Origin: a plasmid
Strand: one strand, 5' to 3'
DNA: 64,000 nt
Sequence record: NZ_CP044066.1
Shown: positions 31,036-46,675 of the stretch, one piece after another
How positions within the stretch are numbered: the first letter of the stretch is position 1
Layout: each line of letters begins with the position of its first letter
Translations under genes and position numbers: made by a program
The notes under the pieces: model-generated
What the model saw: only the letters and a program-made list of their open reading frames with translations
The model's database searches: none
What the model was told of the DNA's origin: nothing

Positions 31036-32325
31036 CTAGTTGCCGTTGGATCCCCCGTTTGCGGTAGAGCCGGCGAGCCACGAAATGGTCCCCACAGGGC
31101 ACGGTTGTCCGTAGGCGCCGAAGCTCGCTTCGTTCCCTTGGCCGCCAGGCCACAGGATGCACAATCCCCAACCGGATTGCTGGCTATTCATAGACAGCTT
31201 GCTCCAAGTTGCCACGACTGTTCCTTGGCCGGCTCCGCTGGCGGCTCGCCACACCCCATTCTGACATGACAACGATTTGCCATTAGGGTCGCTGCGAATC
31301 GCACCCTGTGGATCTCCGCACCCCTGGCCCTCCGAGACCTTCTGTGACGGATCAAGCGAAGGGATGAGAGCACCGGACGCCGTGATGTAACCTGCGGCCG
31401 AGACGCTGCCGTATGACGCTATCGAATTGCCTGCGATCTGATTTGCGGTCATCGCACCGGCGACGTAGGCACTGCCATTCGACTGAACGTAGTTTCCGTA
31501 CACTCCATTCCCGCTGACATTCGCCCCTGCGCTAACATTCCCGTCAGCGATGAGGCTGCCATTTGCAGTTACATTGCCCCCAGCTCCGACACTGCCTGCG
31601 GCCGATACCGAACCATTCGACTGGAAATTCCCCACCCGATTCATCGCCTGATTATTGGCGTCCATCGGACCCGTCAGGTTCAGCGAGCCATCACGCTTGT
31701 AGAACTGGTTCATCGACTGCGCAAGTAGCGAGCTCGAGCCCGTGCGCATTGCCAGCACGCCGGACGGCTGACCCGCCACCGGGTTCACGGCCGACCAGCT
31801 GGCGGACATGCCCGTGATCGTCGCCGGCGTCTCCGCATAGGAGACGCCCGCATCCTGCCCCGCTTTCGCGACGGCAAGGCCAAGCAGGTCAGTCCGCACG
31901 CCACCCGTCGCGTCACGGTAGCCGGCGGTCGAGTACACCAGTCCGGGGATCGAGCATGCGCTCAGGTCCGCGCCGCAGTTTGCCGGCTTCAGATCGATTC
32001 GGAAGGACAACCCCAGCGGGCTCACATCCGAGTAGCCGATCGGCAGCAGATCGAAGTTGATCAGATCCTGCACCGTCGGGTGAAGCGGGCTCTGTATGCC
32101 AATGGTCTTGCCGCCGACAGTGAGGTTCGTGGGCCCTGCGGGACTCTTCGCGAGATCCGTGAAGGCCTCGAACGTATAGGTGTTCGCCGCGGCCGCAATA
32201 TTGGCCATGTAGTTTCCAGTCCCGATAGACTGGATCTCCTCCACCTCGGCGTAGGTCCACGCAACCGATCCCAACAGCCCCACGCTGCTCAGTGCGAGGC
32301 CCAGGGCGTAATTCGACATCAGCAT
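31036..32325 (-). CDS. PilV-like minor pilin / tip adhesin of the type IVb thin pilus
   Basis: It is the last gene of the pil operon, with an AGGAGA RBS. It has a hydrophobic N-terminus and a long region of degenerate GS/GN repeats (NGSVSAAGSVGAGGNVTANGSLIADGNVSAGANVSGNG), followed by a Cys-containing C-terminus. Confidence 0.5.
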   Translation of the reverse strand: MLMSNYALGLALSSVGLLGSVAWTYAEVEEIQSIGTGNYMANIAAAANTYTFEAFTDLAKSPAGPTNLTVGGKTIGIQSPLHPTVQDLINFDLLPIGYSDVSPLGLSFRIDLKPANCGADLSACSIPGLVYSTAGYRDATGGVRTDLLGLAVAKAGQDAGVSYAETPATITGMSASWSAVNPVAGQPSGVLAMRTGSSSLLAQSMNQFYKRDGSLNLTGPMDANNQAMNRVGNFQSNGSVSAAGSVGAGGNVTANGSLIADGNVSAGANVSGNGVYGNYVQSNGSAYVAGAMTANQIAGNSIASYGSVSAAGYITASGALIPSLDPSQKVSEGQGCGDPQGAIRSDPNGKSLSCQNGVWRAASGAGQGTVVATWSKLSMNSQQSGWGLCILWPGGQGNEASFGAYGQPCPVGTISWLAGSTANGGSNGN

Positions 32326-32390
32326 TTCCACTCTCCTATGCCAAAGCCCGGCCATCGGCCGGGCGTGTCATGCATGACGGTTGTGATCGG

Positions 32391-33035
32391 TCAGGACATG
32401 TAGAGATCGATCGTGTTGCTGTCGCTGCTGCAACGCACCTCGGTCATATTGACGCTGCTGCCGACATCTTTGATCGCCGTGCCATTGACGACGATCTTGC
32501 CCGCGCTGCTCTGGAATGCCGCCGCAATCTGCGTGCACGCCGCATCAGGCTGATTCGGGATCGTGTACTGGACGGAGTCGTTGGTGGTCAGCAGCTTCCC
32601 CGGCGCGATCGTCAGCGAGCCGCCGCCCGGCTGCACCGTCACGGTGTTGCCCTCCACCGTCATCGTGGTCAGATCCTTGAACGTGCCGTTGCCCACGACT
32701 GCGGCAATGGTCACCGTGCCGTAGCGCCCGCGATAGTTCGTCTTCACCTTGCCCATCACCTTGTTGAGCTCGGTCGTGAACTGCTGCACCTGCGAATCAG
32801 TCGAGTTGCCGGAGAACAGTACGAGGATGGCAACGAGCGAGAAGGCGACAAGCAGCAGGTAAAAGCCGTATTCGTCAAGAATGCCGCCGTGCTGGCCACG
32901 CAGCCGCGGGTTGATGCGGATGCGCTTCCATTGTTGAGCACGGCTCACCGTGCTGAGCGCGTTGGCGTTGTCCGCGATCGCGGCATCGCGGCTGTCGTTA
33001 TGAGTTTGGCGATTGGTTTCCATGTTGCGTGTCAT
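32391..33035 (-). CDS. Type IVb prepilin, PilS-like (major thin-pilus subunit)
   Basis: The long leader ends in RGQHG, followed by the mature N-terminus GILDEYGFYLLLVAFSLVAILVLF with Glu at +5. Confidence 0.7.
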   Translation of the reverse strand: MTRNMETNRQTHNDSRDAAIADNANALSTVSRAQQWKRIRINPRLRGQHGGILDEYGFYLLLVAFSLVAILVLFSGNSTDSQVQQFTTELNKVMGKVKTNYRGRYGTVTIAAVVGNGTFKDLTTMTVEGNTVTVQPGGGSLTIAPGKLLTTNDSVQYTIPNQPDAACTQIAAAFQSSAGKIVVNGTAIKDVGSSVNMTEVRCSSDSNTIDLYMS

Positions 33036-34270
33036 CAGTTGGATGGGAGGTGGGAGGGGCTGATACTCTTTTGATGCGTGCGAATGCCATTGGTCTGCAT
33101 GCTCTGCTTGAGCTCACGCGCCATGAAGGCAGGCATGAACGCGAGCGCCGTGATAAGCAGAATGAGCAGGATCGATGCGCGGCGGTTGAACTTCGAGGCC
33201 TTATGCTCGAGTTCGCGCGGCGCGGCTTCCAGGACCGTCATCGACACCGTGTTGAGCATCTTCGACAGATCGTCTTCGTACTCGGCGATATCCTGAATCC
33301 GGTAGGTCGTGTCGCGGTCGAACAGACCCGTGTCAAACAGCTTCCCGCCGGCGTTGGGCGACTCTTCGAGCATCGCTTCCATGCGGCGGATGTGTTGCGC
33401 CAGGTAGGGATAGGCGTTGCTGCGCATCATCTCCAGCGCGTTGGTCAGGTTGTTCATGTCACCGCCGAAGTTCTGCGTCACGGCCGACATGCCCGCCAGA
33501 AACTGCGCGCCCTGAAACCTGCGGAAGAAGTCGAAGACAATGACCTTGCGATCGAGCCATTCACGATACGGACCGGTGTAGTGGCGCAGCGCCCGCACGA
33601 CCCACCACACCGCCGCGGCCTCGCCGATCAGCACCAGCCAGCCCCACTCGCGAAGGAAGGTCGTGCCGACGTGGAACGCCTTCGCGATCGGCCCGTAAGC
33701 CTCCACCGGGAGCAGGTTGGCGAAGCTGCGGTCGAGCATCGGCGCGACCATGAACGCCATCGCGCCAAGATAGACGTGCAGAATGATCAGCGTGATGCCG
33801 ACGCTCGCCAGCATGAGCAGGATGTTGGACTTGGCGCTGCTCATGGCGCGCAGGTTCTCCGCCAGCCGGAACAAGCCCTGCTTCACGTCACCGCCCTGCT
33901 CGGCCACCGCGATGATCGCGAGATCTTCGTCCGGTACCGTCCCGCGAAGAATCTCGGCGAGGCGAGACTCCTGCATCTGACCGTCAAGACCCTCATAGCG
34001 CGCGAGCCAGAGAGACGCCAGCAGGCCCAGCGGCTCGCCCGCGCGGCGCGCGGCATCCTTCGCAAAGTGGTTCGCAATCGCCTCGCCCGGCATCTTCTCG
34101 ATGCGCATGGCCAGGTCGTAGTAGTAGTCAGCGCGCTTGGCCGAGAACTCGAGCTTTGCCCACCACAGCTTGTCCGGAAAGCGGCCGGTTGCACCGCTGA
34201 GGCTTTGCGAAGCCGCCGCGTACTTCCTGCGCTTGAACGCCGCCAGGGCTTCTTTGATTCGGTTCATCAT
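33035..34270 (-). CDS. PilR-like inner-membrane platform protein (GspF/PilC/TadC family)
   Basis: 411 aa, polytopic, with two repeated GspF-like halves. Its stop overlaps the pilS start. Confidence 0.75.
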   Translation of the reverse strand: MMNRIKEALAAFKRRKYAAASQSLSGATGRFPDKLWWAKLEFSAKRADYYYDLAMRIEKMPGEAIANHFAKDAARRAGEPLGLLASLWLARYEGLDGQMQESRLAEILRGTVPDEDLAIIAVAEQGGDVKQGLFRLAENLRAMSSAKSNILLMLASVGITLIILHVYLGAMAFMVAPMLDRSFANLLPVEAYGPIAKAFHVGTTFLREWGWLVLIGEAAAVWWVVRALRHYTGPYREWLDRKVIVFDFFRRFQGAQFLAGMSAVTQNFGGDMNNLTNALEMMRSNAYPYLAQHIRRMEAMLEESPNAGGKLFDTGLFDRDTTYRIQDIAEYEDDLSKMLNTVSMTVLEAAPRELEHKASKFNRRASILLILLITALAFMPAFMARELKQSMQTNGIRTHQKSISPSHLPSN

Positions 34271-36072
34271 GCGCGGGCTCCATTCATGCGCTTGAGTTTG
34301 GCCTCATAGGCATCGAGCGAGAGAATCCGCTCGGCCTGCCGGGGATCGACCGTGCCAGCGAAGACGTGGTACATGGCGACCTCGAACACCGATTTGCCAG
34401 TGCAGTCCGGAATGTCGAAGCCGGTGGTGCGCTTCTCGCGTTGATGCGCCTGCAACTCGATAGCGCGCGCATCACGGATGTACATGAGGTCGAGCTCGTC
34501 GGGTTCGAACATCTCTGCGGCCATGACGCGCCCACGGATGCCATTGAGATCGGGCAGATTGGCGCGGCGGCACTTCGGACAGCCCTCTTCACGACGCACG
34601 CGGATGCCCTCGACGTCGAACTGAAACAGCCGCTCGATCTGGCGGAGCTTTGCCGCGCCGAGGATGGCCTTCGCTTCGTCGCCGTGATGACCGCACTCGC
34701 ACGTCTTCGCCAGCAGCGCCTGATACACGTAGAGGTTCACGAATCCGGGTGTCGCGAGCACGCTGCGGGGAATCTGCAATTCGCTGTCAGCCAGGCGGTC
34801 CGTCGCCGCGGTGGCGGACGGCGCGTGCACCGTCGTCATGGCGCGCAGACCCGCGCCGGCGACGTCGCGGAAAAGGCCAGCCGATTCGAAGTCGCGCACC
34901 TCGCCGATCATGACGAAATGCGGGTTCATCCGCTTCAGTTGGCGCTTCGCGACGATGAAAGGATCTTCCGCACGGTTGGAGCCGTCGAGTTTGCGAGCCA
35001 CCGAGAAATGGTGCGTTCCATGCGCCATCAGTTCGACCGGGTCTTCGATCGACATCTTGTTCATCCATCCCGGCAGGCGCTGCATGACAGCGTGCGCGGT
35101 CGTGGTCTTGCCGGAGCCGACCGTGCCGACAAGCACCACACCCCCGCCCATCTGCATCGTGCAGCGGTCGATGACGTCCGCCTGCTGCTGGAAGAACGCG
35201 AGATCCTTCACGAAGTCCACCTGAGTCGTCGTCGCATTCTCGGGATTCATCCGCATGACCGTCACATGGCCATCCGCGCTTTGCATCGACGCCCACCGAA
35301 ACACCATCGGGACGCCATCGACGGCAGTCCGGATGCTGGTCTGCTGCGGCAGCACGCGGCTGAAGACGCCATGCGAGCCGCCCTTACCCTTCTGGTAGAC
35401 GTGCGACAGCATGTCGAGCAAGTCGGCTGTCCGGACACGAAATTCGGGCGGCAGCACCAGGTGCCCATCGATCGCGAACCGAATCTGCGACAACTCGCTG
35501 TTGTCCTTCACTTCGAAGTGGATGTCGGAGGCCTGCTCGCGCTTGGCGAACTCGGCCGCAGCGAGGAACGTCTGCCAGAGCCCATTCGCGTTGCGCAGAC
35601 TGGTCGTCTGGACACCATCGATCCGCGCGCTGCCCTCCACGCCGCGAGACAGAGCCGTCATGACCTGTGGGGTCGCGGCGAAGAACAGCGGCTCGGCGGC
35701 ATCCCACCGCAGGCGCGCCTGCCGTACGATTTCGTCCGTGAAGTCCGAATGTCGCATCTCGTCGAGCAGGATCAGGGCGAACTTGCCCCGTTCGCCGTCT
35801 GCCGGCGACTCCATCAGCACCGGGCAGATTTGATGGCGCAGAGACTGGGCCATGCCAAGATCGTCATACAGCGCCCGGACGAACGGAGGCAGTTCATCTG
35901 TGGTCTGCACCTCTGCTACATCGGCGCTGCCCGTCGGCAAGGCGGGCTCATGCCGTGACGGCTCGGCACGGGCGGGCGCCGCCGGCCGCGCCGGGGCGTT
36001 GCCGGATAGCACCATGATCCCGCTGGAGGCTTCCGGCACGAGTGCCTTTCTCGATCGATCGAAGAATCGCAT
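34267..36072 (-). CDS. PilQ-like secretion ATPase (GspE/PilB/VirB11 superfamily)
   Basis: Walker A VLVGTVGSGKTTT; Asp and His boxes present; C-terminal tetracysteine motif CECGHHG...CPKC. Confidence 0.85.
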   Translation of the reverse strand: MRFFDRSRKALVPEASSGIMVLSGNAPARPAAPARAEPSRHEPALPTGSADVAEVQTTDELPPFVRALYDDLGMAQSLRHQICPVLMESPADGERGKFALILLDEMRHSDFTDEIVRQARLRWDAAEPLFFAATPQVMTALSRGVEGSARIDGVQTTSLRNANGLWQTFLAAAEFAKREQASDIHFEVKDNSELSQIRFAIDGHLVLPPEFRVRTADLLDMLSHVYQKGKGGSHGVFSRVLPQQTSIRTAVDGVPMVFRWASMQSADGHVTVMRMNPENATTTQVDFVKDLAFFQQQADVIDRCTMQMGGGVVLVGTVGSGKTTTAHAVMQRLPGWMNKMSIEDPVELMAHGTHHFSVARKLDGSNRAEDPFIVAKRQLKRMNPHFVMIGEVRDFESAGLFRDVAGAGLRAMTTVHAPSATAATDRLADSELQIPRSVLATPGFVNLYVYQALLAKTCECGHHGDEAKAILGAAKLRQIERLFQFDVEGIRVRREEGCPKCRRANLPDLNGIRGRVMAAEMFEPDELDLMYIRDARAIELQAHQREKRTTGFDIPDCTGKSVFEVAMYHVFAGTVDPRQAERILSLDAYEAKLKRMNGARA

Positions 36073-36084
36073 GATCGCTCCTCC

Positions 36085-36696
36085 TCAGCCTACCGAAGGC
36101 GCGGCAGGCGAAGCGGGCGCGACGGGCGGCGCCATCGCGGGGACCGGCGCGGGCATCGAGGGCGCGAACGGCATCGGTGCGGCCAGATTGTTTGCAGGGT
36201 TCTGACCGGGCAGCGGCTCCGCGGGGCGCGCCGCCGCGTTCACCGTGCGCGGCGCGGGCTCCTCGAGGAGAACGGCTTCGTCGTCCGCTCGCGCCGCTGT
36301 CAGCGTTTGCTTCCCCTTCGCGAACGTCGTGCCGTTCTCGGTGATGGAGATCACCTTGTAGCCACGGACGCTTCCGCCCACGCGTGCCGCATACAGTTCG
36401 TTACCCCACTTCACGTAGCTGCGAAGCGTGACCGGCAGTCCCGCCTTGCTGCCATCGATACCAAAGACAGCCACCGTCTTCGGCACCGAATGCGCCTCGC
36501 GGCTCGGAGCCGCGGGCGGCGTCACGACCACCGGGGCCGGGTTGGTCTTCGCCAGCTCCTGATCGGCCTTTTGCACGGCAATCTGAGCGTCCTTCTCGAG
36601 CAGCACGCGGGTGACGGACTTGTCGCCCTCCGCGTGTGCGCAAGTCGCGGTCATCGCGAGCGCAATAGTTGCCAGCGTCATGTCGAAGCGGTTCAT
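36085..36696 (-). CDS. PilP-like periplasmic pilus biogenesis protein
   Basis: It has a signal peptide, a small beta domain and a Pro/Ala-rich tail. The position matches R64/PAPI-1 pilP. Confidence 0.45.
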   Translation of the reverse strand: MNRFDMTLATIALAMTATCAHAEGDKSVTRVLLEKDAQIAVQKADQELAKTNPAPVVVTPPAAPSREAHSVPKTVAVFGIDGSKAGLPVTLRSYVKWGNELYAARVGGSVRGYKVISITENGTTFAKGKQTLTAARADDEAVLLEEPAPRTVNAAARPAEPLPGQNPANNLAAPMPFAPSMPAPVPAMAPPVAPASPAAPSVG

Positions 36697-38060
36697 TGGT
36701 TTGCTCCATCGCGGGCGTACGCATCGCCCTTCACGTTGATCTCGAACTTGGATGTCTGGATGGTGGGTTCAGCGTCGAGCTTGACCGCCAGCTTGATCGC
36801 GGACACCGCCACGTTTGGCGGGAAGGTGGCGATCTCCCCGGCATTGCGCAGCGGGCCGTCCATCTCCCATGGCGCGCTCTTGTAGACCTGGGGCACCGCT
36901 GCCATGCCCTCGCCCGGGATGGTCCCGAAGAGCGCGATATCACCAAGCACCGCCTTCGTCGCGGCGGGTCGGAGCAGCTGGAGCGTCGAGCCGAAGTCCG
37001 TGCGCAGCGCCATCGACGTCGGGAGCGCATCAAGGAGTGCCCCGAGTTTCGTTCCATTACCGAACGGCACGTCCGCCTGCACCACGACCTCCTTGTCTTC
37101 CTTCGAGAAGACGGGTGCGGTAAATGCGTCGGGCAAAGCAGCCAGGAACGTGGCATTGGTGACGCCGCGAGGGCTTTCCTTCGCACCCTCGCCAAGGCTG
37201 TAGGTCAGCGAGCATGCCGCCGCCGGGGTCACGACCGCCGGGCAATCCACCTTGGTCAGTTTCCAGCCGCCTACAAACAGCGCGTCGGTGTCGGCAAACC
37301 ATTTCGCGAACCGTGGCACGGCCTCGGATGCCCGTGCGGACGGCGCCATGCCACGCGCGAGGATGTCCTCTGCGTAGCGCTGGGCCGGGCTCTTCTGCGG
37401 TGGAGGCGGATGCTTGCGGGCTTCGTACGCGCGGTACTGTGCCATCCCGTACTTTCCGCCGATGGCAGCAACGACAGCCAGGACGGCAAGCGCCGCTGCG
37501 CGACGTTTCATGGCCGTCGAGCTTGGCTTGCGCAGGGCCGCATGGGAATCCGCCGCGTCAGCCAGCTGCTCGAGCGTCAGCGCGGAGAATGCGAGGCCAG
37601 GCACGTTCCCGAGCAGATGGCTGAGCTCAGGAAGGTTTCCTGCAAGGCGGAAGGAGCCGCCCGCGACACGCGCAAACTCCACCACGACTTCGGACAACGC
37701 CTGCTCATCGTGAATCACGCGGTCAAAGCCGACGCGCGGGCGGCCTTTGAGGACGCCGCAGACGAGATACCCGACCTGTTGTCCAGCGTGCTCGAGTCGG
37801 TAGGCGAAGAAGACATTGGGCATCAGGCCCGGAATGCGCGCCACAGTGGCGGCGGCCGAGTACAGCTTGTCCTTGACCTTCGTCTGTCCATCCTCCGGCG
37901 CGAGGTAGCCCATGTGGAGGGCAGACCCATCGTGCCAGATTCGATTGGCCTTCACCTCACGTGCAACCTTGGCCGCGAGGTCCGGGGCGGGCGCATTGCC
38001 GGTCAGCGTGCGCCACTGCATGCCGAAAGCGATCGCCTTGCCATGGACGTCGAGGATCAT
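36693..38060 (-). CDS. PilO-like type IVb pilus assembly protein
   Basis: 455 aa with a central TM segment (AALAVLAVVAAIGG). Its position between pilN and pilP matches R64/PAPI-1 pilO. Confidence 0.45.
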   Translation of the reverse strand: MILDVHGKAIAFGMQWRTLTGNAPAPDLAAKVAREVKANRIWHDGSALHMGYLAPEDGQTKVKDKLYSAAATVARIPGLMPNVFFAYRLEHAGQQVGYLVCGVLKGRPRVGFDRVIHDEQALSEVVVEFARVAGGSFRLAGNLPELSHLLGNVPGLAFSALTLEQLADAADSHAALRKPSSTAMKRRAAALAVLAVVAAIGGKYGMAQYRAYEARKHPPPPQKSPAQRYAEDILARGMAPSARASEAVPRFAKWFADTDALFVGGWKLTKVDCPAVVTPAAACSLTYSLGEGAKESPRGVTNATFLAALPDAFTAPVFSKEDKEVVVQADVPFGNGTKLGALLDALPTSMALRTDFGSTLQLLRPAATKAVLGDIALFGTIPGEGMAAVPQVYKSAPWEMDGPLRNAGEIATFPPNVAVSAIKLAVKLDAEPTIQTSKFEINVKGDAYARDGANQ

Positions 38061-38845
38061 CGGACAACTCCCGGCGACACGGTGTCGGTATCCGCCTTCG
38101 ACAAGCGCATGCGCAAAAAGGAGCGGAACTCAGCCCTCTCGGCTGCGGGACCGCGCCTAGTACCGTCGGGGCTGAAGAGATCCACGCGCGCTGTCGTCGG
38201 TAGATTCAGTCGATGGCACAGGAAGTGCTCCAAGTCCGCGCGAAACTGGTTGCAGAACCCAATCGCGTTCGGCATGAACATGCCGTAGATCACAGCACCC
38301 CATGCGACCACCAGCACAAGGCCCTTAGCCATTGCATAAGCGAATGACTCCGGGGACGTCTGAGCTAGCGCCCAAAGCTTACGCGCTAGGGCCAGCGCTG
38401 TAACTGTGTCGAGAAGCAGGCCACCAATCACGATCCAGAATGCAAGGAACGGAATGGCCCGCGTCATTAAACGGACGGAGTTGAAGGCCATCTCGCAAAG
38501 GTTCGCGATTTGGCGCAGATAGTTTGCGCCCGAGAAGGCTGCGTGATGACGCAACGAGGCGTATTCGACGTCTGAGATCACCCCGACATCCATCCCGTGG
38601 ACCTGAACCGTCCAGGTGCGGTCGGTCGTGGCCAACATCCGTTGCTCAAGCGACAGGCCGAAGATAGATAAGATCCCTTGGCCAATCAGTGTCAACACGG
38701 CCGACACCACGGCCACACCAACCATATCCTCAACATGTTGTATGAGGACCAACGAAAGGCCCGGCAAGCACGTCAGGATCGCCACAAGCGGATAGCGGCG
38801 ATACAACGCCAGCGCGTCAGAGAGAAGCGTTCGGATAGCCAGCAT
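38057..38845 (-). CDS. Polytopic inner-membrane protein of the pilus cluster (PilM-like, tentative)
   Basis: 262 aa with at least 5 TM helices. It is translationally coupled on both sides. Confidence 0.35.
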   Translation of the reverse strand: MLAIRTLLSDALALYRRYPLVAILTCLPGLSLVLIQHVEDMVGVAVVSAVLTLIGQGILSIFGLSLEQRMLATTDRTWTVQVHGMDVGVISDVEYASLRHHAAFSGANYLRQIANLCEMAFNSVRLMTRAIPFLAFWIVIGGLLLDTVTALALARKLWALAQTSPESFAYAMAKGLVLVVAWGAVIYGMFMPNAIGFCNQFRADLEHFLCHRLNLPTTARVDLFSPDGTRRGPAAERAEFRSFLRMRLSKADTDTVSPGVVR

Positions 38846-38847: not shown

Positions 38848-40656
38848 TTACTTCCCCTCCCCATGGTCTTGCACCATGACGGTCGCCAGCAAGAGCGTGA
38901 AGGTGCGGGTCTTCGAGACGGTCTGCGAGCCACCGAGGATCATCGGCAGCGACTCGCCGAGCGTGCGACGCGTATTGGCGGTGTCGTCCTGGTCCAGAGC
39001 CGTCATCAGCACGGTTTGTCCGTTGCGGACGATGATGTCCTGCTTCGGAATGCCCTTGCCGACAATGTTGATCGTCTGCACCGACTGCTGGTTGTCGCCG
39101 GAGCCTGACGTGAACTTCTCGAGCGGGCCATCCTGCTTCGATTGGTCAAGCGCGATGGTGAGATTGACGTCATCGCGGGACGTCGCATCGGCGTATGCGG
39201 CAAGCTTGAAGCCCACCGTTGCCGTCGACGTCACGATGCCGGGAATGCCACCGGTGCCACCGGCCGTGGTCGTGGCGGGCGTCGAGCCGGATGCATACGA
39301 GAAGGTGCGACGGTTGTTGTACTGGAAGCCGTGCCGGTTCCGCATGGACACGGGGATGGTCAGACCGGATGTGACCGTGCCGTATTGCTTCAGCGCGTTC
39401 ACGATGGCCTGCGTGCCATTGAATCCTCCGGACGTGATACCCAGGCCGACACTGCCGGCAGCCGATGACACCAGCGTCGCCGGCGACAAAGCGTTGACCG
39501 TAAACCCCGGGATATTCTGCAGCGCCTTGGTCAGTATGACGTTCCAGTCGTAGCCGGCCTCACCCAAGTCCGCCACGGTCAGGTCGATCATCTGAAACTT
39601 GAAGATAATGACACGCGAGTAGATCGCGATCTGCCTCCGGATGATCTCGTCGGCGGCATCGACCGCCTCTTTGGTATCGCGCAGCGTGAGCACCCCGGTC
39701 GCCGGATTGAGCTCCGGGTTGCCGACCATCGTGAGCGCAGGCAGGATGCTCGCCTTGATCCCTTCGAGATCGTTCTGTTCCTTGATCTCGGCCTTCGCCG
39801 CAGCGTCAATCTGCGCCGACTGCCCCGATCCACCGCCGCCTGCACCACCGCCACCGGACGAGTTACCCTGCGCGGATTGCTTGAACTCGGTCGTGAACGA
39901 GTTGGTGCCACCTGCCATCGGCAGCTGCCAGGTCTTCGTCACCAGACGGTAGAAGCGCACCACGCCCTTCTCGGTGTTGTATTCCCAGTTGATACCCAGG
40001 CGCGTCGCGATCAGGTCGAGCATGCTCGCGAGGGGCATCTTCTCGCTGTTTCGAAACTCGACGTTCAGCGGGGTTTCGAGCAGCGCAGTGCTTTGCGTCA
40101 CGCCAGACGCGCCTCCGGCCGTCAGCGCAGTGGGGAGCGGCGAATTGAGGGCCGGTGCGGGACCAAGGCCTTGCGCGATCGGGTTGATGGCACCGGCCTG
40201 CCCAGGCTGCTGCGTGCGCAGCTGCTGGAGTGCCTGCGTGCCCAGCGATCGCGGCAGCAGCAGGTTCGGCGGCAGATAGACATCGGATTCGATCTTGACC
40301 GGAATCCCGGTGGCCATCTGCACGCGCTGGGCGGCTACCGCGAGCGACATCGTGCGCTCCGGGAACATCACCAGCGTGTCAACATTGTTCCGTAGCGCCA
40401 CGGGCAAGGTCACGTTCCGCGCGACGGGGACGCGCTTGCCCGCGAGGAAAGGCCGATCCACGTCCTGCTCCGCTTCTACCGCAGCCCGGTCGCGGCGGAT
40501 ACGCGCGTAAAGTTCCTCGGTGGTCTGCGTGACCTGCGCGGTGGTGTTGTCCGTGGTGCGTCGCACATCGTTGAGCAGCGTGGGCGAGACGCAGCCAGCC
40601 AGCGTGCTGCACACGAGGATTGCACCGGTCGTCGGACGGAAGATTCGATTCAGCAT
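38848..40656 (-). CDS. PilN-like lipoprotein secretin (GspD/PilQ secretin family)
   Basis: Lipobox LAGC. N0/N1-like domains are followed by a C-terminal secretin domain (VRNGQTVLMTALDQDDTANTRR...FTLLLATVMV). The ATG at 40656 lies 7 nt after the pilL stop. Confidence 0.8.
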   Translation of the reverse strand: MLNRIFRPTTGAILVCSTLAGCVSPTLLNDVRRTTDNTTAQVTQTTEELYARIRRDRAAVEAEQDVDRPFLAGKRVPVARNVTLPVALRNNVDTLVMFPERTMSLAVAAQRVQMATGIPVKIESDVYLPPNLLLPRSLGTQALQQLRTQQPGQAGAINPIAQGLGPAPALNSPLPTALTAGGASGVTQSTALLETPLNVEFRNSEKMPLASMLDLIATRLGINWEYNTEKGVVRFYRLVTKTWQLPMAGGTNSFTTEFKQSAQGNSSGGGGAGGGGSGQSAQIDAAAKAEIKEQNDLEGIKASILPALTMVGNPELNPATGVLTLRDTKEAVDAADEIIRRQIAIYSRVIIFKFQMIDLTVADLGEAGYDWNVILTKALQNIPGFTVNALSPATLVSSAAGSVGLGITSGGFNGTQAIVNALKQYGTVTSGLTIPVSMRNRHGFQYNNRRTFSYASGSTPATTTAGGTGGIPGIVTSTATVGFKLAAYADATSRDDVNLTIALDQSKQDGPLEKFTSGSGDNQQSVQTINIVGKGIPKQDIIVRNGQTVLMTALDQDDTANTRRTLGESLPMILGGSQTVSKTRTFTLLLATVMVQDHGEGK

Positions 40657-40664
40657 AGGGCCGC

Positions 40665-41321
40665 TCACTTGGTCGGATCGCACTTCGTGGTGAGCTTCAC
40701 CACACGCACAAGGTTGTTGGAGTAGAAGCAGGGTTTCAGGCTGTAGTCGGTCATCTCGGTCGAAGCGAGCGCGCGCCGCACCGCGGCCTTGAAATCCCCC
40801 GTGAAGGCGTCCGCGCCCTCGATCTGCACGTCCTGATCCGGCTCCCACGGCGCGGCCGTCCAGCCCACTTCGCGCGCCCATTTCTCGATGAGCAGGCGAT
40901 AGTTGCCATCGGCCGGTGACACAGACCAGTCGCGCGTGCTGGTAGCTGTCGGTGCAGCGGCTACCGGAGCAGCGATGACAGGGGTCACGGTCGCGGCAGG
41001 GATGGGTTGCGCGGCCGGCAGCGCAGCCGAGGCACTCCCGGTCCCAGTCGCCGGCGCGGCGGCGACCGGCGCCGCGGCGAGGGTTGCTGACTTAGGCCGC
41101 GCGCTGCGGCTATCCGACAGCAACTGCCATCCGCCACCGGCCAGCGGCTTGGTTGGCTCGAAGGTTCCCGAAGCATCGGCGCCGAAGGGCGATGCGCCCG
41201 GCACTGCCGCGTGCGCGCTGAGGACAACAGCGGCGCCGCCGCACAGCAGAACCCGGCACATCCGGGAGAACAATCGAGGCAGGTACATGGCTGATTTCCG
41301 TTGAATATTCGAAGAGTTCAT
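40665..41321 (-). CDS. PilL-like protein with a TcpQ-type C-terminal domain
   Basis: Signal peptide present. The C-terminus WAREVGWTAAPWEPDQDVQIEGADAFTGDFKAAVRRALASTE...VVKLTTKC is as in TcpQ/PilL of PAPI-1-type clusters. Confidence 0.55.
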   Translation of the reverse strand: MNSSNIQRKSAMYLPRLFSRMCRVLLCGGAAVVLSAHAAVPGASPFGADASGTFEPTKPLAGGGWQLLSDSRSARPKSATLAAAPVAAAPATGTGSASAALPAAQPIPAATVTPVIAAPVAAAPTATSTRDWSVSPADGNYRLLIEKWAREVGWTAAPWEPDQDVQIEGADAFTGDFKAAVRRALASTEMTDYSLKPCFYSNNLVRVVKLTTKCDPTK

Positions 41322-41737
41322 TTGCGCAGCATCTCGTAGACGCGTGTCGCGTAGCGCAGGCGCTTGTCCGGCGCGCCGGCGTTGTAGCAACCGACGGCGG
41401 TCCACGTCTCGCCGTAGCGGCTGAGGCAGTCGGCAAGAATCCACGTGCCCACATACGCGTTGATACAGGGGTCGAACAGGCTCTGGCGGGTGATGCCGAA
41501 CTTCGCCAGGCGCGGCAGATGAACGGAGTTGATCTGCATGAGGCCGATGTCCTCGGTGCCGTTCGTGTTGCGATTCGTCGCTCCGGCGCGCATCCCGGAT
41601 TCGACCTGCGCGATGCCGCGCGCAAGCGTCGGGCTCACCCGGTGGAACGCGGCCGCATCGTCGAGACAGTCGGCGTGTGCGGCCGACACCAGAGTCAGTG
41701 CAGCAACGAGAAGGAGGACTGGACGCAGCGAGCTCAT
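41318..41737 (-). CDS. Periplasmic lytic transglycosylase (SLT domain), R64 PilT-like
   Basis: Signal peptide; catalytic region IAQVESGMRAG...GLMQINSVHL. Confidence 0.8.
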   Translation of the reverse strand: MSSLRPVLLLVAALTLVSAAHADCLDDAAAFHRVSPTLARGIAQVESGMRAGATNRNTNGTEDIGLMQINSVHLPRLAKFGITRQSLFDPCINAYVGTWILADCLSRYGETWTAVGCYNAGAPDKRLRYATRVYEMLRK

Positions 41738-43011
41738 TGCACACTCGCCGCACGCTCGTAGAAGCGCACTTCTGGAAGACGATCCACACGCACGATGTTG
41801 CCGTCGGCGATGACGGTCAGATGGTCAGAGACGCCGTTGAATTTGAAGTAGCGATCCTTCTGCTCCCCACCGCCCTGATGGTTGTCGCCGAACACCGAAA
41901 TGCTCGCCATCGATTTGGCGAAGCTCAGGTAGGTGTTGCCGTCCTTCTCGAACACGCGCTCAAGACCAGCGTCGTTCTCGCGCGGGAACAGGAAGCTGAT
42001 ACCGGGCACGCGTGCGACCTCCACCCGCTTGCCGGCGGCCGCGACGGTGAAGTGGTCGACGGTGGGGAACGAGAGGACCTTCTCGGTGTCGTCCCATTTC
42101 GTGCGCAGCTTGTCGCCTGCGGCATCGCGCAGCTCCAGGCCGCTCGGCTCCGCGTCGAAGCGCATCTCGATGCGCCCATTCTTCGCGTCACGAATCGCCA
42201 GCGCGTTGAAAGCGGATGCGAGCGTAGGGCCTTCCGGCAACGGCGTGCCACCGCCGCCAGCGGCAGCCGCCGGCGCTGATGTGGCGCTCTTTGCGACATC
42301 TGACACAACGTCAGTCGCGGGCGCGCTGGTGCGCAGCATCCCGCCGGGCGCCGGAAGCTTCTCCGTCTCCACAGCGAACGCCTTGGGGGGCGTGGCGCGC
42401 AGGGAGATACTGCGGCGCCCGAAGTCGACCTCCGCATAGAGATTGCGTTGCTCGAGGACGCGCGCGAGGGCCTGCAGCCAGTTCTCGCCACTGCGCGCGT
42501 CGAGCGATACATCGTCCGTAAGCGAAATGTCCTTCTGCGCCGTGCCGCTCCATCCCGCCGGGGCTATCGACTTCACCATCTGCGCGAGGGGCAACGAAGA
42601 ACGGCCCGCGCGCACAACGGGAAGGTCCGTGAAGCTGCCGATGAGCGCCAGACGGCCGGAGATCGCAGCCAGACTGCGCGGCAGATCTCCGCTCGGGTTC
42701 GCCGGCTCGGACGTGAAGCTGTTCGCACGCTTCCAGCGTGCAACCACCATCTGACCGTTCACCGAGTACCGCACCACGTCCGGCACGCCATCGATGACCC
42801 AGTACGGACCATTCTGGATCGCGCCGTCAGCATCGATCTTCTGGCCAAACCGCGGCTGGATGTAGGTGGCGACGCCGTCGTTGAAGACCATCGCCGGACG
42901 CTCGGACGCCCGTGCGACCACCTGATAGTCGAAGTCCAGCGGATCGGTATCGGCCGCAATAGCGGGAAACGCCATCAGCGCCAGAGCAGAGAAGATGAGC
43001 GGCCGGATCAT
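41734..43011 (-). CDS. Secreted protein with VirB9/TrbG-like beta-domain motifs at both ends (function unknown)
   Basis: Signal peptide. The N-terminus FDYQVVARASERPAMVFNDGVATYIQPRF...WVIDGVPDVVRYSVNGQMVVARW and the C-terminus YFKFNGVSDHLTVIADGNIVRV both resemble the VirB9 C-domain pattern. Confidence 0.4.
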   Translation of the reverse strand: MIRPLIFSALALMAFPAIAADTDPLDFDYQVVARASERPAMVFNDGVATYIQPRFGQKIDADGAIQNGPYWVIDGVPDVVRYSVNGQMVVARWKRANSFTSEPANPSGDLPRSLAAISGRLALIGSFTDLPVVRAGRSSLPLAQMVKSIAPAGWSGTAQKDISLTDDVSLDARSGENWLQALARVLEQRNLYAEVDFGRRSISLRATPPKAFAVETEKLPAPGGMLRTSAPATDVVSDVAKSATSAPAAAAGGGGTPLPEGPTLASAFNALAIRDAKNGRIEMRFDAEPSGLELRDAAGDKLRTKWDDTEKVLSFPTVDHFTVAAAGKRVEVARVPGISFLFPRENDAGLERVFEKDGNTYLSFAKSMASISVFGDNHQGGGEQKDRYFKFNGVSDHLTVIADGNIVRVDRLPEVRFYERAASVQ

Positions 43012-43814
43012 TGGAATTGCGCCACGTGTTTCATGAATCGGGAGAAGTACGGACCACCGCGCTCAGGATTCGCGCTGTGGTACCAGGCCACGGCCTTCAT
43101 GGGTGAGCCGCTGCGCTGGAGGTTCTCGGCAAGGATGTCCTCCGCGACGCGGATGTTGGTGGCGGGTGCCAGCGCCTCCCACGGCGAGGCAAAGCGCCTG
43201 CCGTGGTAGCACCAGTTCACCTGCATGAGGCCGACATCGAAGTCGCAACGGTCACTGGCTAGCAGGCGGTTGATGGCCGCATAGGCTTCCTCGCGCGAGG
43301 CGAAGAACATGCCCCGCCCCGCGACGTTGAGCGTCCACGGCCAGGGGCGGCCGCGATACGACGACTCGTTCATCGCGATGCCCGCCGTGATCTTGGGATC
43401 GACCCGATGGCCCATCTGCGCGAAGGGCTCGGTCTTGGGTGCGCATGCCCAGCCACCGCGGCGCTCGGCAATAGCTTCCTGTGCGGCGTCGTTCAGGACA
43501 GCAGGCCGTAGCCAGCCTTCCCGCGCGAACAGGCGCGCGATAGGCACCGACTTGCCGCCAAGCGTCACCACTGAACCTTCATCGGCGCCAGGTTCGATCT
43601 GAGCGTTCAGCAGCCGGGCCGACCATCCGAGGAATGCATCGAGGCCGCAGAACAGGACGGGCTTGCCTTCCAACGTATGCACGCGTGCCTGACCATCGGC
43701 CCGCACAACGATCGCGTTCGGGCTGACAACCGCCTCAATAATTGCAGCGTGGGCAACGATCGACGCGAACGATGCCACGACGCCGCATACGATGTTCGTC
43801 ACGCGCCTATTCAC
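43008..43814 (-). CDS. virB1: VirB1-like lytic transglycosylase
   Basis: SLT motif ...ESSYRGRPWPW...DVGLMQVNWCYHG. The GTG start overlaps the end of virB10. Confidence 0.7.
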   Translation of the reverse strand: MNRRVTNIVCGVVASFASIVAHAAIIEAVVSPNAIVVRADGQARVHTLEGKPVLFCGLDAFLGWSARLLNAQIEPGADEGSVVTLGGKSVPIARLFAREGWLRPAVLNDAAQEAIAERRGGWACAPKTEPFAQMGHRVDPKITAGIAMNESSYRGRPWPWTLNVAGRGMFFASREEAYAAINRLLASDRCDFDVGLMQVNWCYHGRRFASPWEALAPATNIRVAEDILAENLQRSGSPMKAVAWYHSANPERGGPYFSRFMKHVAQFQ

Positions 43815-45045
43815 GATACGGCTCCAGCACGATGTCGTGCTTAACCTGCACGACCATCTTCTGTCCCGGCTCGGTCGTGATCGTCGGGCGGATGTTCTGG
43901 TTGCGATTGAGGATCGTCTGCGCGGTCTGGGTCGCAACCTGTCCCGCAGCGTTGCCATAGGTCGTCAGGCCATTCGGGCCCACCGTCGTCGCCGTGTTGC
44001 CGTTGTTGAACCGCTGCTCGAGCAGGCCAATCACGAGCGCGCCGCCGAAGATTTTCCAGAAGTGGTTGTTGACGTCCCCGGAGTTGCCCGCAGTGCCGTC
44101 CGGATCGGCACCCTGCATGCCCATCAGCGGTACCGTCTTGCCGTTTGGCAGCTGCATGCGCACGAATGCGGTCAGGATGCGCTCCTGCCCCACAGCGATA
44201 TCGGCGCTGTACATGCCGACGAGCGTCGTGCCGGCCGGGATGATTCGACACGTTCCTTTCACGGTGTCGTAGACGTCTTGGGAGACCGTCGCACGGAACT
44301 CACCCGGCTTGTCGGAGTTGAGGCCCCCAGCAAAGTTCGCGGGGATGATGAAGCCACGGCTCAGCGTGCAGCGCGGCAGCTTGCCGTCGAAGCCGGTGCG
44401 CAGCGTCGAGGCCGTTCCCGCGTCGCGAAGGAATTGCTTGTCAGCGGATACGGGCTGTGCGGCACTATCCGGCCCCTGCCCCGCAGTGGCCGCGCTCGCG
44501 CGTGCCGCGGCGGCCTGTTGCAAGGCCCGCATTGCGGCGGGATCGGTGACATCGGCGACAGCCGGAGCGTTGCTTCGCTCAATCTGGCTCTTGCGCACCC
44601 CGCTCTTGTAGATCGGCGCCGTGAAAATCGTGTCCTGCTCGTTCTTCTTCGCGTCCGGCGCGGCGGCGCCCGCACGGCCGCCAGCAACGAAATCATTCGC
44701 CGTCAGCACGGGCGTCCTTGGCGCATCAGCCGGCAACGCGACCTTGCGCTGACGCTCTGCTTCCTGCCTTGCCTTCTCCGCCTGATCGCGAATGGTCTGC
44801 TCGAGGTTCTGCGCACCCTCCGAAGAGCCGGTGCGGGCGCGGATCTGCTCAGCGCGCTCCTTCTCGACCTGCTCGTCGCGCTGCACTTCGTTGAGAGACT
44901 GGAAGTAGTATCCGAGCGCGCCCACAAGAACGGCCGCGATGCTGCCCAGCGCGATCACGATATTGCGCGGTAGCTTTCCCTTCACCGTGCGCTGCTGCGC
45001 ATCGGTGACGTCGGTCACGTTGGGGTCGTGCTTGTTGCCGCGCAT
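43807..45045 (-). CDS. virB10: VirB10/TrbI
   Basis: N-terminal TM segment, Pro/Ala-rich linker, and the C-terminal conserved region ...RIIPAGTTLVGMYSADIAVGQERILTAF...GDVNNHFWKIFGGALVIG. Confidence 0.85.
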   Translation of the reverse strand: MRGNKHDPNVTDVTDAQQRTVKGKLPRNIVIALGSIAAVLVGALGYYFQSLNEVQRDEQVEKERAEQIRARTGSSEGAQNLEQTIRDQAEKARQEAERQRKVALPADAPRTPVLTANDFVAGGRAGAAAPDAKKNEQDTIFTAPIYKSGVRKSQIERSNAPAVADVTDPAAMRALQQAAAARASAATAGQGPDSAAQPVSADKQFLRDAGTASTLRTGFDGKLPRCTLSRGFIIPANFAGGLNSDKPGEFRATVSQDVYDTVKGTCRIIPAGTTLVGMYSADIAVGQERILTAFVRMQLPNGKTVPLMGMQGADPDGTAGNSGDVNNHFWKIFGGALVIGLLEQRFNNGNTATTVGPNGLTTYGNAAGQVATQTAQTILNRNQNIRPTITTEPGQKMVVQVKHDIVLEPYRE

Positions 45046-45968
45046 CAGAAGAGCCCCAGGATGCGGCCACGGCCGCGCTCCACGCGTACTTCCTCGCGGC
45101 CCGAACGCAGGACCACGGTGTCCGCGAGGCGCTGCACGACGAGGTAGCCGCCTCGGCGCAGCGCGTTGACCACGACGTAGTCACTCCCGTCCTTGACCAG
45201 CGCCACCGGCCAGTTTTGCGAGGCCCCCGCGGGCAGGCGCAGCCACAGCGCCTTGCCATCATCGAATGCCGTCTCCGGCTTGAAATCGGCGCTGCCAGAA
45301 ATCGAGTACTCGAAGTTGAGCTTCTCCGGCGAGACGCCGATCGCCTCGGCATTCCGCTCGTCGGCCACGTCGCCAGCGCGGGCCTCACCCGCGTCCGCCT
45401 TCGCGTCGTTGCGCGCCTTGACCTTTGCCGCTACCGAGGTCGGAATACGGAACCGCACCTTCTGATAAAAGATGCCGCCCAGCGGCGACGACACGAGTGT
45501 GAACTCGTAGCTGCGCTTGTTCGTGTTCACCGACAGTGTGTTCACGAGGCCTGCCGCCTGCGGCTTCACGTAGAGGTGATTGACGCCGTCGGTCTCGTAG
45601 TCCCAGCGAACGCTTTCGCCCCACGCGGGCTCGCCGACAATCTGCTCGTCGTCGGGGAACTCGATGGTTGTCATCTTCAGCGGCGCGCTCAGCACGCGGA
45701 AGATCTGATCGCGGCTGTAGGTAAAGACGACAAGCCGCGAATCGCCGGGCAACGCCACCGGATCAACGCCGCCGTTGAACGGATTCGCCGGGTTCATGGC
45801 GTCGCTCATATCGCCCACGCTCAGGCCGCCCAGGCCTGCGCCAGCGCGGCCGGGAAGCTTGTCGGCGGCGTGGCCGTCGGGGACAGAGAGCGCGAACGCC
45901 AGCACGGCGGCAATGGCGTAGGGGAGAATCCGGGAGGATTTGGCTTCCATGGCTTCTGAGCGCGGCAT
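45045..45968 (-). CDS. virB9: VirB9/TrbG
   Basis: Signal peptide. N-domain ...TIEFPDDEQIVGEPAWGESVRWDYETDGVNHLYVKP...NTLSVNTNKRSYEFTLVSS. C-domain FEYSISG...ALWLRLP...VALVKDGSDYVVVNALRRGGYLVV. Its start overlaps the virB8 stop (TAATG). Confidence 0.8.
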   Translation of the reverse strand: MPRSEAMEAKSSRILPYAIAAVLAFALSVPDGHAADKLPGRAGAGLGGLSVGDMSDAMNPANPFNGGVDPVALPGDSRLVVFTYSRDQIFRVLSAPLKMTTIEFPDDEQIVGEPAWGESVRWDYETDGVNHLYVKPQAAGLVNTLSVNTNKRSYEFTLVSSPLGGIFYQKVRFRIPTSVAAKVKARNDAKADAGEARAGDVADERNAEAIGVSPEKLNFEYSISGSADFKPETAFDDGKALWLRLPAGASQNWPVALVKDGSDYVVVNALRRGGYLVVQRLADTVVLRSGREEVRVERGRGRILGLF

Positions 45969-46675
45969 TACGCCTGCGACTTTTGGATGCTGAAGAAAAC
46001 GGGATAGATGCCGAACGGATTCGTGCCGAGCACGGCATCGCTGGTCGGCGGCTTGACCTGATAGCGGAACGTAATGGCGTAGCGCTGCCTGCGCGGCTTG
46101 TAGCCGTCCTCGCTGGTGGAGGTCACGAACTCCACGGCGACCGTGCTGTCCGGCAGGACGGCGATGTTCAGAATCTTCGGCTCGCGCACAAGCGTGGGCG
46201 AGGTGATGACCTGACGGATCGGCTGATCGTCGTCCACCCATTCCTGAAACTGCTGGCGGCCTGACCCGACCATTTGCTCGCGCACGGAGCGCAGGTTCTG
46301 CGCAATGCGGGAGCGCTCGACGTCCGTGCTCAGGATCGGCTCGATCGTGAACCAGCGCGTGACCAGATCCTTGAACGCCCACTTCAGGGCGAGATCGTCT
46401 GGACGGTAGTCGGTCAACTCGCGCACGAACGGCTTGCCCGTGGCGTCGGCGGATACCCCAACCGTCTTCACCACCGATGGCGGCGACTCGCGCGTCATGA
46501 TCGCCGCGAATGCAATGAACCCGATCCCAAGCGTTGCGATCTTCCAGTGATTGCGCTCGACGGCCAGTCGCGTCGTGCGATCAAAGATGACCTGCTCGGG
46601 GTTCTCGTCGGCGTACATCCCCGGCGCGACGCTCAGAGGTTTGGCCTTGTCGGATTTCTTGGTGAACAGACGCAT
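45968..46675 (-). CDS. virB8: VirB8/TrbF
   Basis: A bitopic protein with an N-terminal TM segment, an NTF2-like domain, and a C-terminal ...LGTNPFGIYPVFFS motif. Confidence 0.75.
   Translation of the reverse strand: MRLFTKKSDKAKPLSVAPGMYADENPEQVIFDRTTRLAVERNHWKIATLGIGFIAFAAIMTRESPPSVVKTVGVSADATGKPFVRELTDYRPDDLALKWAFKDLVTRWFTIEPILSTDVERSRIAQNLRSVREQMVGSGRQQFQEWVDDDQPIRQVITSPTLVREPKILNIAVLPDSTVAVEFVTSTSEDGYKPRRQRYAITFRYQVKPPTSDAVLGTNPFGIYPVFFSIQKSQA

Follow-up and report, generated by a model that had tools for sequence, protein, structure and literature searches.

A VirB-type secretion core and a type IVb thin-pilus gene set packed into one array of a pMOL28/pHG1/pRALTA-family plasmid

Thin pili of the type IVb PilL-to-PilV kind occur on mobile elements together with different classes of mating-pair formation (MPF) system. 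In the IncI1 plasmid R64, the thin pilus goes together with a MOBP relaxase and an MPF of the I type, the pil genes form a separate operon, and PilU, a shufflon, and the extra genes pilI, pilJ, pilK, and pilM are also present. The pil2 cluster of PAPI-1/pKLC102-type integrative and conjugative elements (ICEs) and the cluster of an Achromobacter MPF_I plasmid lie in a MOBH-type context and encode PilL-N-O-P-Q-R-S-V without PilU, and PAPI-1 depends on the PilD of its host. A third arrangement, that of IncI2 plasmids (R721, TP114, and mcr-1 plasmids), consists of a VirB-type type IV secretion system (T4SS) followed by thin-pilus genes. Here we describe a region of plasmid sequence record NZ_CP044066.1, from which a stretch of 64,000 nucleotides (the window) was analyzed. 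Fifteen minus-strand open reading frames (ORFs) run in one direction from position 46675 to position 31036, with no gap larger than 35 nt, and encode, in order, VirB8, VirB9, VirB10, a lytic transglycosylase (SLT1), a 425-aa secreted protein (p425), a second transglycosylase (SLT2), a TcpQ-domain PilL, PilN, a 262-aa membrane protein (p262), PilO, PilP, PilQ, PilR, PilS, and PilV. Profile matches and ORF positions bear out all of the genes listed in a first-pass annotation of the window, together with their order and strand. The region is probably the mating-apparatus part of a conjugative Cupriavidus megaplasmid of the pMOL28/pHG1/pRALTA family, in which a mating-stabilizing pilus would be co-regulated with the T4SS.

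A well-known parallel, and the best analogue in function, is the IncI2 design. An IncI2 plasmid (MOBP, MPF_T) encodes virB3, virB4, a VirB8-like protein, virB9, virB10, virB11, and the coupling protein on one strand, and 50 nt past the coupling protein, on the same strand, come pilN, pilO2, pilP, pilQ, pilR, pilS, pilT, pilU, and pilV with a shufflon. Experiments show that mating of IncI2 plasmids, both in liquid and in the gut, needs the pilus, and a thin-pilus requirement in liquid but not solid matings has been shown for R64 and TP114 only. It follows from the IncI2 arrangement that a full type IVb pilus paired with a VirB-type MPF in one orientation is already common. The first-pass annotation, which named the I-type MPF of IncI1 and the G-type MPF of PAPI-1 in its comparison and overlooked IncI2, had regarded the locus as an unusual hybrid. 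That view is countered by the one-strand succession of virB9, virB10, virB11, and coupling protein and then pilN to pilV in IncI2, and also by the identical architecture of the published pHG1/pMOL28/pRALTA backbone, now found in 83 PLSDB plasmids and 123 species genomes. The two outer-membrane conduits that it had singled out are a property of any plasmid with a T4SS plus a thin pilus.

Comparison with PLSDB by megablast showed that the array region matches pMOL28 at ~80% identity over 66% coverage, a C. pauculus plasmid over 71% coverage, and other Cupriavidus plasmids as well, and positions 1 to 25000 of the window likewise match blocks of the pMOL28/pHG1/pRALTA backbone. In pMOL28, pENH92, and pHG1, the array and the operon diverging from it have the same order and orientation, gene for gene. 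The host of pMOL28 is C. metallidurans CH34, that of pHG1 is C. necator H16, and that of pRALTA is C. taiwanensis. Parts common to the pMOL28/pHG1/pRALTA/pENH92 backbone are p425, two SLT genes, the TcpQ protein, the secretin, a MOBH TraI, TraD, a DUF4400 protein, and a 26-bp box described below. Compared to pMOL28 and pENH92, the window has the extra p262 gene between pilN and pilO, while pHG1-type plasmids carry another pil variant with the order N-P-O2 and two prepilins. According to MOB-suite, pMOL28 is conjugative, MOBH, and MPF_T, and pHG1 is MPF_T. Sequence comparison thus places the window as a further member (~80% identical) of a known plasmid backbone, with IncI2 as an independent, well-known parallel. 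The array layout was sequenced already in 2003. Janssen et al. (2010) described a "pil locus" in pMOL28 (Rmet_6288 to Rmet_6297) beside trb/tra genes (Rmet_6299 to Rmet_6309), assigned both to a backbone in common with pHG1 and pRALTA, and remarked that pMOL28 may possess "a sui generis conjugative system" (PMC2864759). A literature search for the pMOL28 locus tags returned only that paper; a 2026 survey of Ralstonia T4SSs leaves the pilus link unmentioned, and a C. taiwanensis transcriptome paper contains nothing on a virB8-pil operon.

When each species was represented by a single genome in a scan, 123 genomes had a relative, and 80 loci were kept. The block virB8-virB9-virB10-SLT1-p425-SLT2 is collinear in 73 of the 80 loci and collinearity extends through pilQ in 67, across six Burkholderiaceae genera. 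No locus (0 of 80) violates the order, and the others lack one or more genes, mostly from contig ends. Among the 83 PLSDB plasmids with p425, 38 are from Burkholderia, 20 from Cupriavidus, 11 from Paraburkholderia, 8 from Ralstonia, 4 from Caballeronia, and 2 from Robbsia. The VirB4 lineage, represented by 62 plasmids at an identity of at least 60% and two B. gladioli plasmids at 59.7%, with the next full-length match at 32%, is by sequence as family specific as p425.

Of the 80 loci, only 27 have the divergent virB11 operon beside virB8. The array from virB8 to pil in Paraburkholderia and Burkholderia plasmids instead adjoins rep and parAB, with VirB4 encoded 50 to 60 kb away on the same replicon; examples are NZ_CP017565.2 (p425 at ~6.3 kb, VirB4 at ~63.8 kb), NZ_CP015038.1 (~112.5 kb and ~169.6 kb), and NC_015383.1 (~9.3 kb and ~60.9 kb). 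Because virB4 is so distant in these plasmids, the linkage between virB8-10 and pil is more stable than that between the two halves of the T4SS. Conservation also differs along the array. In pHG1-type, Paraburkholderia, and Caballeronia loci, PilN and PilQ are 22 to 30% identical to those of the window, compared to 36 to 87% for virB8 through SLT2 in the same loci; for pHG1-type loci alone, the values are ~25% and 60 to 86%. From these identities, the pil module 3' of SLT2 looks to have been exchanged between lineages. Two interrupted arrays were also seen. In a plasmid of B. cepacia ATCC 25416 (locus L090, 22176 to 25850), the array stops after the secretin and is followed by PRTRC system genes, and in pBN3 (L089, 23557 to 26936), an ISL3 transposase interrupts it behind the ATPase gene.

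Within the window, the array begins with the envelope-spanning genes of the T4SS, all on the minus strand. The first gene, virB8 (45968 to 46675, 235 aa), matches PF04335 (E = 7e-27) and is 68% identical to VirB8/TrbF of pMOL28. It is followed, through a TAATG overlap, by virB9 (45045 to 45968, 307 aa with a signal peptide, or 301 aa from a start at 45950; CagX PF03524, E = 1e-48) and then, through a TGATG overlap, by virB10 (43807 to 45045, 412 aa; TrbI PF03743, E = 2e-53). SLT1 (43008 to 43814), a VirB1-like lytic transglycosylase of 268 aa with a GTG start, overlaps virB10 by 8 nt. The first-pass annotation had this gene as virB1; its SLT match (E = 5e-4) is weak and under the Pfam cutoff, and the orthologue in pMOL28 carries an SLT domain annotation. 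While the earlier ORF coordinates had the right genes, the starts of virB9, SLT1, pilL, and pilN were called too far upstream. The likely starts are 45968 or 45950 for virB9, 43814 for SLT1, 41288 or 41321 for pilL, and 40656 for pilN, in agreement with gene calls made independently on the contig from which the window derives, a 68-kb Logan assembly contig of run SRR8984874 (268, 425, 139, 207, and 602 aa).

All junctions in the array are overlaps of 1 to 8 nt or gaps of 2 to 35 nt. From virB8 onward, they are TAATG, TGATG, the 8-nt overlap, three ATGA overlaps, a GTGA overlap or an 8-nt gap, and a 2-nt gap, followed by two ATGA overlaps, a 12-nt gap, ATGA, TGATG, and a 35-nt gap. Stop and start codons overlap at 9 to 11 of the 14 junctions, the range being set by the choice of starts. 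Directly 3' of the pilV stop codon, between convergent genes, a GC-rich hairpin at 31006 to 31029 with a 10-bp stem and a T run is the likely operon end. Such packing is that expected for a translationally coupled operon, and the earlier operon-like picture of virB8 to pilV holds with respect to packing, the hairpin marking the end of the array. Judged from sequence features of this kind, the whole array would be cotranscribed. A scan for sigma-70 promoters gave one weak match, below the chance expectation, and was uninformative.

As had been proposed, the remaining T4SS genes diverge from an intergenic region of about 500 bp; the spacer between virB8 and virB11 measures 511 bp (46676 to 47186). 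The divergent operon (47187 to 56296, plus strand) was assigned from Pfam matches and synteny with the pMOL28 annotation and encodes virB11 (47187 to 48236), virB2 (ending at 48600), virB3 (48602 to 48931), virB4 (48925 to 51381), a virB5/TrbJ-like gene (ending at 52132), virB6 (52129 to 53211), a MOBH-type TraI (53208 to 54440), and a TraD-type coupling protein (54437 to 56296), with a DUF4400 protein beyond the coupling protein as a further member of the plus-strand set. VirB2, VirB3, VirB6, VirB8, VirB9, VirB10, and VirB11 were matched by Pfam, with VirB2 (22.7 bits) and VirB3 (22.8 bits) slightly under the cutoffs, and their pMOL28 orthologues are annotated accordingly. VirB4 matches CagE_TrbE_VirB (E = 1e-16) and is 79% identical to VirB4 of pMOL28, which MOB-suite types as MPF_T. 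The relaxase matches TraI_2 of the MOBH type (E = 3e-8), and the coupling protein matches TraG-D_C, TrwB, and T4SS-DNA_transf. The earlier assignment of this T4SS to the VirB/MPF_T-like class is supported, with pMOL28 and pHG1 both of that type.

The spacer also contains a candidate control element for both transcription units. A 26-bp box, AAAGCTCCGCAAAATCGCATAGCTTT, lies on the minus strand at 46735 to 46760, 60 to 85 nt upstream of the virB8 ATG, and is a candidate activator or promoter site. A second copy, at 47120 to 47145 on the plus strand, lies 42 to 67 nt upstream of the virB11 ATG. The two copies are part of a 38-nt inverted repeat with arms at 46723 to 46760 and 47120 to 47157, so that each box points to its own operon. 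Across its 64 kb, the window has exactly two occurrences of the 26-bp core AAAGCTCC[G/T]CAAAATCGCATAGCTTT, where 0 are expected by chance. In ~30 loci from Cupriavidus and Ralstonia, a related box begins 84 to 88 nt upstream of virB8, and most of these loci also have a copy facing virB11; a degenerate box is found at an equal distance from virB8 in a few Paraburkholderia and related loci. A position weight matrix returned two weaker sites in the window (26625 to 26650 and 62389 to 62414), which are leads only because the matrix was built from sites picked for their similarity to the window box.

The first of these weaker sites lies ~335 nt upstream of a two-gene candidate regulator (26986 to 29396, plus strand) that adjoins pilV and encodes a 407-aa coiled-coil protein and a 391-aa FlhC-domain protein (PF05280, E = 5e-8). 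A Pfam search found no FlhD match in the 407-aa partner. Orthologues of the pair adjoin pilV in pMOL28 and pENH92, where IS1086 (pMOL28; L001, 8417 to 9436) and an IS66 family element (pENH92; L002, 1842 to 4290) lie directly upstream of the pair; neither is in the window. These insertion sequence elements could alter transfer regulation in those two plasmids. SetCD and AcaCD are FlhDC-like class II activators of the transfer operons of MOBH elements, with a box that overlaps the −35 region (PMC4542580). The locus resembles the SetCD/AcaCD regulons of SXT/R391 ICEs and IncC plasmids in being a MOBH element that encodes an FlhC-domain protein and has a conserved box at each of its two tra promoter regions; the window proteins are about twice as long (391 and 407 aa) and the partner is without an FlhD match, and the comparison of the boxes covers their arrangement. 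By this analogy, the pair and the boxes suggest a candidate master-activator circuit of the SetCD/AcaCD type, in which the FlhC-like protein may act through the 26-bp boxes.

The alternative that survives best is that the array is contiguous by position only and that its pil part is regulated separately from one or more promoters of its own inside the coding sequence of genes farther upstream, such as a strong one driving pilS. Expression of major pilin genes often has to be far higher than that of assembly genes, and the exchange of the pil module 3' of SLT2 between lineages suggests a separable unit. The junctions argue against it, with stop-start overlaps at most of them and no gap beyond 35 nt, as does the frequency of terminator-like sites within the array, which is at chance level (11 found compared to 11.0 expected), and the matrix scan found no further high-scoring copy of the box within the array. 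Separate regulation appears unlikely.

The pil genes that follow p425, again all on the minus strand, make up a complete type IVb set of the R64/R721/PAPI-1 PilL-to-PilV kind, as first proposed, according to profile searches, hhalign, and BLASTP. A type II secretion, Tad, or competence identity was rejected, as the best family-level matches are to the PilN family and to IncI-type PilO, PilP, PilR, PilS, and PilV. SLT2 (41318 to 41737, 139 aa), which overlaps p425 through ATGA, is a PilT-type lytic transglycosylase (SLT PF01464, E = 3e-22) with 37% identity to IncI2 PilT (E = 6e-25). The PilL-like TcpQ-domain protein (40665 to 41288, 207 aa, alternative start at 41321) matches TcpQ PF10671 (E = 2.5e-20) and, by hhalign at 99%, an Achromobacter TcpQ-family protein. 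PilN (38848 to 40656, 602 aa) is a lipoprotein secretin with the lipobox LAGC that matches positions 26 to 510 of the 513 in TIGR02520 (E = 2e-40) at 139 bits, compared to a curated cutoff of 288; it is 25% identical to IncI2 PilN over 82% of its length and 26% identical to Achromobacter PilN over 99%. Between pilN and pilO, p262 (38057 to 38845, 262 aa) is a predicted multi-pass membrane protein without a Pfam or NCBIfam match, present in 8 of the 80 related loci (36 to 85% identity) and absent from pMOL28, pENH92, and pHG1.

PilO, PilP, and PilV had no match in Pfam or NCBIfam and were identified through hhalign of family profiles against IncI2, Pseudomonas, and Achromobacter proteins, with probabilities of 99%, 95%, and 97%, respectively. 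For PilO (36693 to 38060, 455 aa), the alignment to IncI2 PilO2 is nearly full length (E = 3e-18), and the pENH92 orthologue is annotated as "type 4b pilus protein PilO2"; PilP (36085 to 36696, 203 aa) has a signal peptide and aligns with IncI2/Pseudomonas PilP (E = 3e-8). The assembly ATPase PilQ (34267 to 36072, 601 aa; T2SSE, E = 7e-40) is 24 to 29% identical to PilQ of IncI2, Pseudomonas, and Achromobacter (BLASTP to IncI2 PilQ, E = 6e-16), and the platform protein PilR (33035 to 34270, 411 aa) matches T2SSF (E = 1e-10) and IncI2 PilR (hhalign 99.8%).

PilS (32391 to 33035, 214 aa) is a type IVb prepilin (PF08805, E = 3e-7; hhalign 93% to IncI2 PilS). Its predicted cleavage site, RGQHG|GILDEY, has Gly at −1 and E at +5, and the QHG|GILDEY motif and the N terminus are conserved across loci, which bears out the GILDEY mature N terminus read from the sequence at first. 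The PilS leader (32883 to 33035) is ~51 residues, long even among type IVb prepilins and compared to ~27 residues in IncI2 PilS. The last gene encodes a PilV-like adhesin or minor pilin of 429 aa, probably from the ATG at 32325 (31036 to 32325; the ORF extends to 32355). Residues 31 to 118 align with residues 28 to 98 of IncI2 PilV by hhalign, C-terminal BLASTP matches to PilV are weak, and the pMOL28 orthologue is annotated as "adhesin." In the N-terminal region (32319 to 32355), alignment across related loci showed no recognizable prepilin cleavage site with Gly at −1. The protein appears to begin mature-like: the window version starts with MLMSNY, and relatives start with MFLTE, where E is at +5. 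Such an N terminus hints at a leaderless minor pilin.

The absence of PilU and of a shufflon noted at first was confirmed. A tblastn search of the whole window with IncI2 PilU gave a best E of 0.59, no PilU is annotated in the pMOL28, pENH92, or pHG1 regions, and a repeat search near pilV, whose 3' end is marked by a hairpin opposite a convergent gene, turned up no shufflon-like repeat set and only imperfect inverted repeats at the level of chance. A host PilD-type peptidase would likely have to process PilS, acting in trans; C. metallidurans CH34, for example, has chromosomal pilBCD (PMC2864759).

The likeness to R64, judged by profiles and published description, covers PilN, PilO, PilP, PilQ, PilR, PilS (PF08805), PilT, and PilV (PMC12282955). 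The best matches outside the family for PilN, PilQ, and PilR are from the Achromobacter plasmid (26 to 29% identity), yet this plasmid and the PAPI-1-type elements differ in having an I-type or G-type MPF, in lacking p425, and in a pil operon that does not include virB8-10. The pil proteins of IncI2 are homologous by profile, and IncI2 differs in that all virB genes run in one direction, pil comes after virB11 and the coupling protein, the relaxase is MOBP, PilU and a shufflon with Rci are present, p425-like protein is absent, and no TcpQ-family protein is annotated. Compared to IncI systems in general, the window is distinguished by the lack of PilU and shufflon, the split T4SS, the MOBH relaxase, p425, and the leaderless-looking N terminus of PilV. 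Identities of the window pil proteins to those of IncI2, Pseudomonas, and Achromobacter are 21 to 29%, those of its VirB proteins to IncI2 are 21 to 29%, and the overall range to IncI2 is 21 to 37%. Because the pil and VirB identities are as low as 21 to 29%, the window represents a separate lineage with the IncI2 design.

Of special interest in this array is the secreted protein p425 (41734 to 43011, 425 aa), encoded between the T4SS genes and the pil genes. It consists of a region resembling the VirB9 C-terminal domain (residues ~27 to 95), an alpha/beta domain resembling N0/STN/TcpQ (~117 to 210), a linker (212 to 259), and two further beta-sandwiches resembling the VirB9 C-terminal domain (260 to 421). 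AlphaFold predicted a beta domain at 27 to 95, an alpha/beta domain at 117 to 210, a disordered linker at 212 to 259, and a confident beta region at 260 to 421, and a separate model of residues 256 to 425 had a predicted local distance difference test score (pLDDT) of 93.8. Residues 17 to 99 align with the neighboring VirB9's C-terminal domain (hhalign 89%, E = 2e-6), two C-terminal sandwiches are suggested because of weak internal repeats (317 to 340 and 394 to 417), and the middle domain is N0/STN-like by fold only. A profile search gave a weak CagX/TrbG match.

Orthologues in the pMOL28, pENH92, and pHG1 regions are variously annotated as "TrbG/VirB9 family" or "pilus assembly protein PilL." Neither label was retained: as a plain second VirB9, p425 was rejected since only its beta-sandwich parts resemble the VirB9 C-terminal domain, and as PilL, since hhalign against the window's own TcpQ/PilL protein gave nothing. 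The first description, a VirB9-like secreted protein, is right for the sandwiches and misses the secretin-N0/TcpQ-like domain. Models of p425 thus suggest a protein that unites folds known from the outer-membrane core of T4SSs and one that is characteristic of secretin N domains and their partners. Its family has 241 protein clusters at 90% identity, and the best match is from Cupriavidus plantarum (94%). Every named member among the 120 matches listed is from the Burkholderiaceae, and the profile search for relatives beyond that family found none among those bearing a name and provided no outgroup. No VirB7-like lipoprotein was found between 30000 and 60000 although VirB9 and three extra domains resembling its C-terminal domain, the usual VirB7 partner, are present.

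It is conceivable that virB8-10, p425, and the pil genes encode a single integrated envelope machine with a shared platform, in which p425 would couple the VirB9/VirB10 core to PilN or take the place of VirB7. The three VirB9-like sandwiches and the secretin-N0/TcpQ/DotD-like domain are found together exactly at the module junction, p425 is present in every locus of a family whose named members are all Burkholderiaceae, virB8-10 remains attached to pil even with virB4 50 to 60 kb away, and no VirB7-like lipoprotein emerged from the small-ORF scan of 30 to 60 kb. If true, coupling through p425 would explain why virB8-10 stayed with pil though the rest of the T4SS moved 50 to 60 kb. However, domain folds alone are no proof of bridging, which is speculation for p425; in IncI2 and IncI1, the T4SS and the pilus function as separate machines in the absence of p425, shared regulation or plasmid-backbone history can account for the linkage, and VirB7 proteins are small and easily overlooked. 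Such a fused machine is distinctly improbable.

The interpretation that best fits the region remains two separate machines for mating, delivered together. In this model, two divergent transcription units would be expressed from one 511-bp control region with the same conserved 26-bp box before each. The plus-strand unit would supply that half of a VirB-type (MPF_T) T4SS which comprises its inner-membrane and ATPase parts, together with the MOBH relaxase and the coupling protein, and the minus-strand unit would supply the envelope-spanning core (VirB8, VirB9, VirB10, and transglycosylase), then a complete type IVb thin-pilus machine. By analogy to R64 and the IncI2 plasmid TP114, the thin pilus would most likely make and stabilize donor-recipient contacts in liquid or unstable habitats, with the VirB channel as the route for DNA. 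Both machines would be made at the same time owing to the boxes they share and to tight coupling of translation, the FlhC-like protein encoded beside pilV may act as the activator, as SetCD and AcaCD do in other MOBH elements, and PilS would be processed by the PilD-type peptidase of the host.

Several points weigh against this interpretation. Throughout the family, the pilus is tied to conjugation by analogy, and Janssen et al. (2010) left a secretion role possible (PMC2864759). Some p425 plasmids (29 of 83) are typed as nonmobilizable and some arrays are truncated, though MOBH relaxases may be under-called, and pRalta was moved via an RP4 oriT and a helper plasmid, not by its own system (PMC2796954). 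Internal promoters may lie within the coding sequence of the array, the lipobox-based search for VirB7 returned only out-of-frame artifacts, where a divergent VirB7 could escape, PilN scores below the curated NCBIfam cutoff, and several pil proteins are just 21 to 29% identical to those of the reference systems.

A pilus for adhesion, biofilm formation, or host colonization, irrelevant to DNA transfer and behind virB10 for historical reasons, as is the case with the R64-like pil clusters on the chromosomes of Salmonella (SPI-7) and Yersinia, would fit the symbiosis and rhizosphere plasmids among family members, the lack of a shufflon for recipient switching in the repeat search near pilV, the retention of array parts by some plasmids typed as nonmobilizable, and the doubts of Janssen et al. 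about a role in conjugation, but it is very doubtful given that pil lies inside the transfer regulon, tightly coupled 3' of essential T4SS core genes and under a box common to the other tra operon, and that characterized plasmid-borne PilL-to-PilV systems all act in mating.

As a discovery claim, the hybrid operon is minor: it has long been sequenced in pHG1 and pMOL28, and IncI2 likewise combines a thin pilus and a VirB-type T4SS. Through this transfer system, large plasmids for metal resistance, lithoautotrophy, and symbiosis move among Cupriavidus, Ralstonia, Burkholderia, Paraburkholderia, and Caballeronia. The interest that remains is in the pair of 26-bp boxes with the FlhC-like candidate regulator, the mixed folds of p425, and the lasting linkage of virB8-10 with pil, each of which offers an entry point for experiments on the coordination between a T4SS and a type IV pilus.

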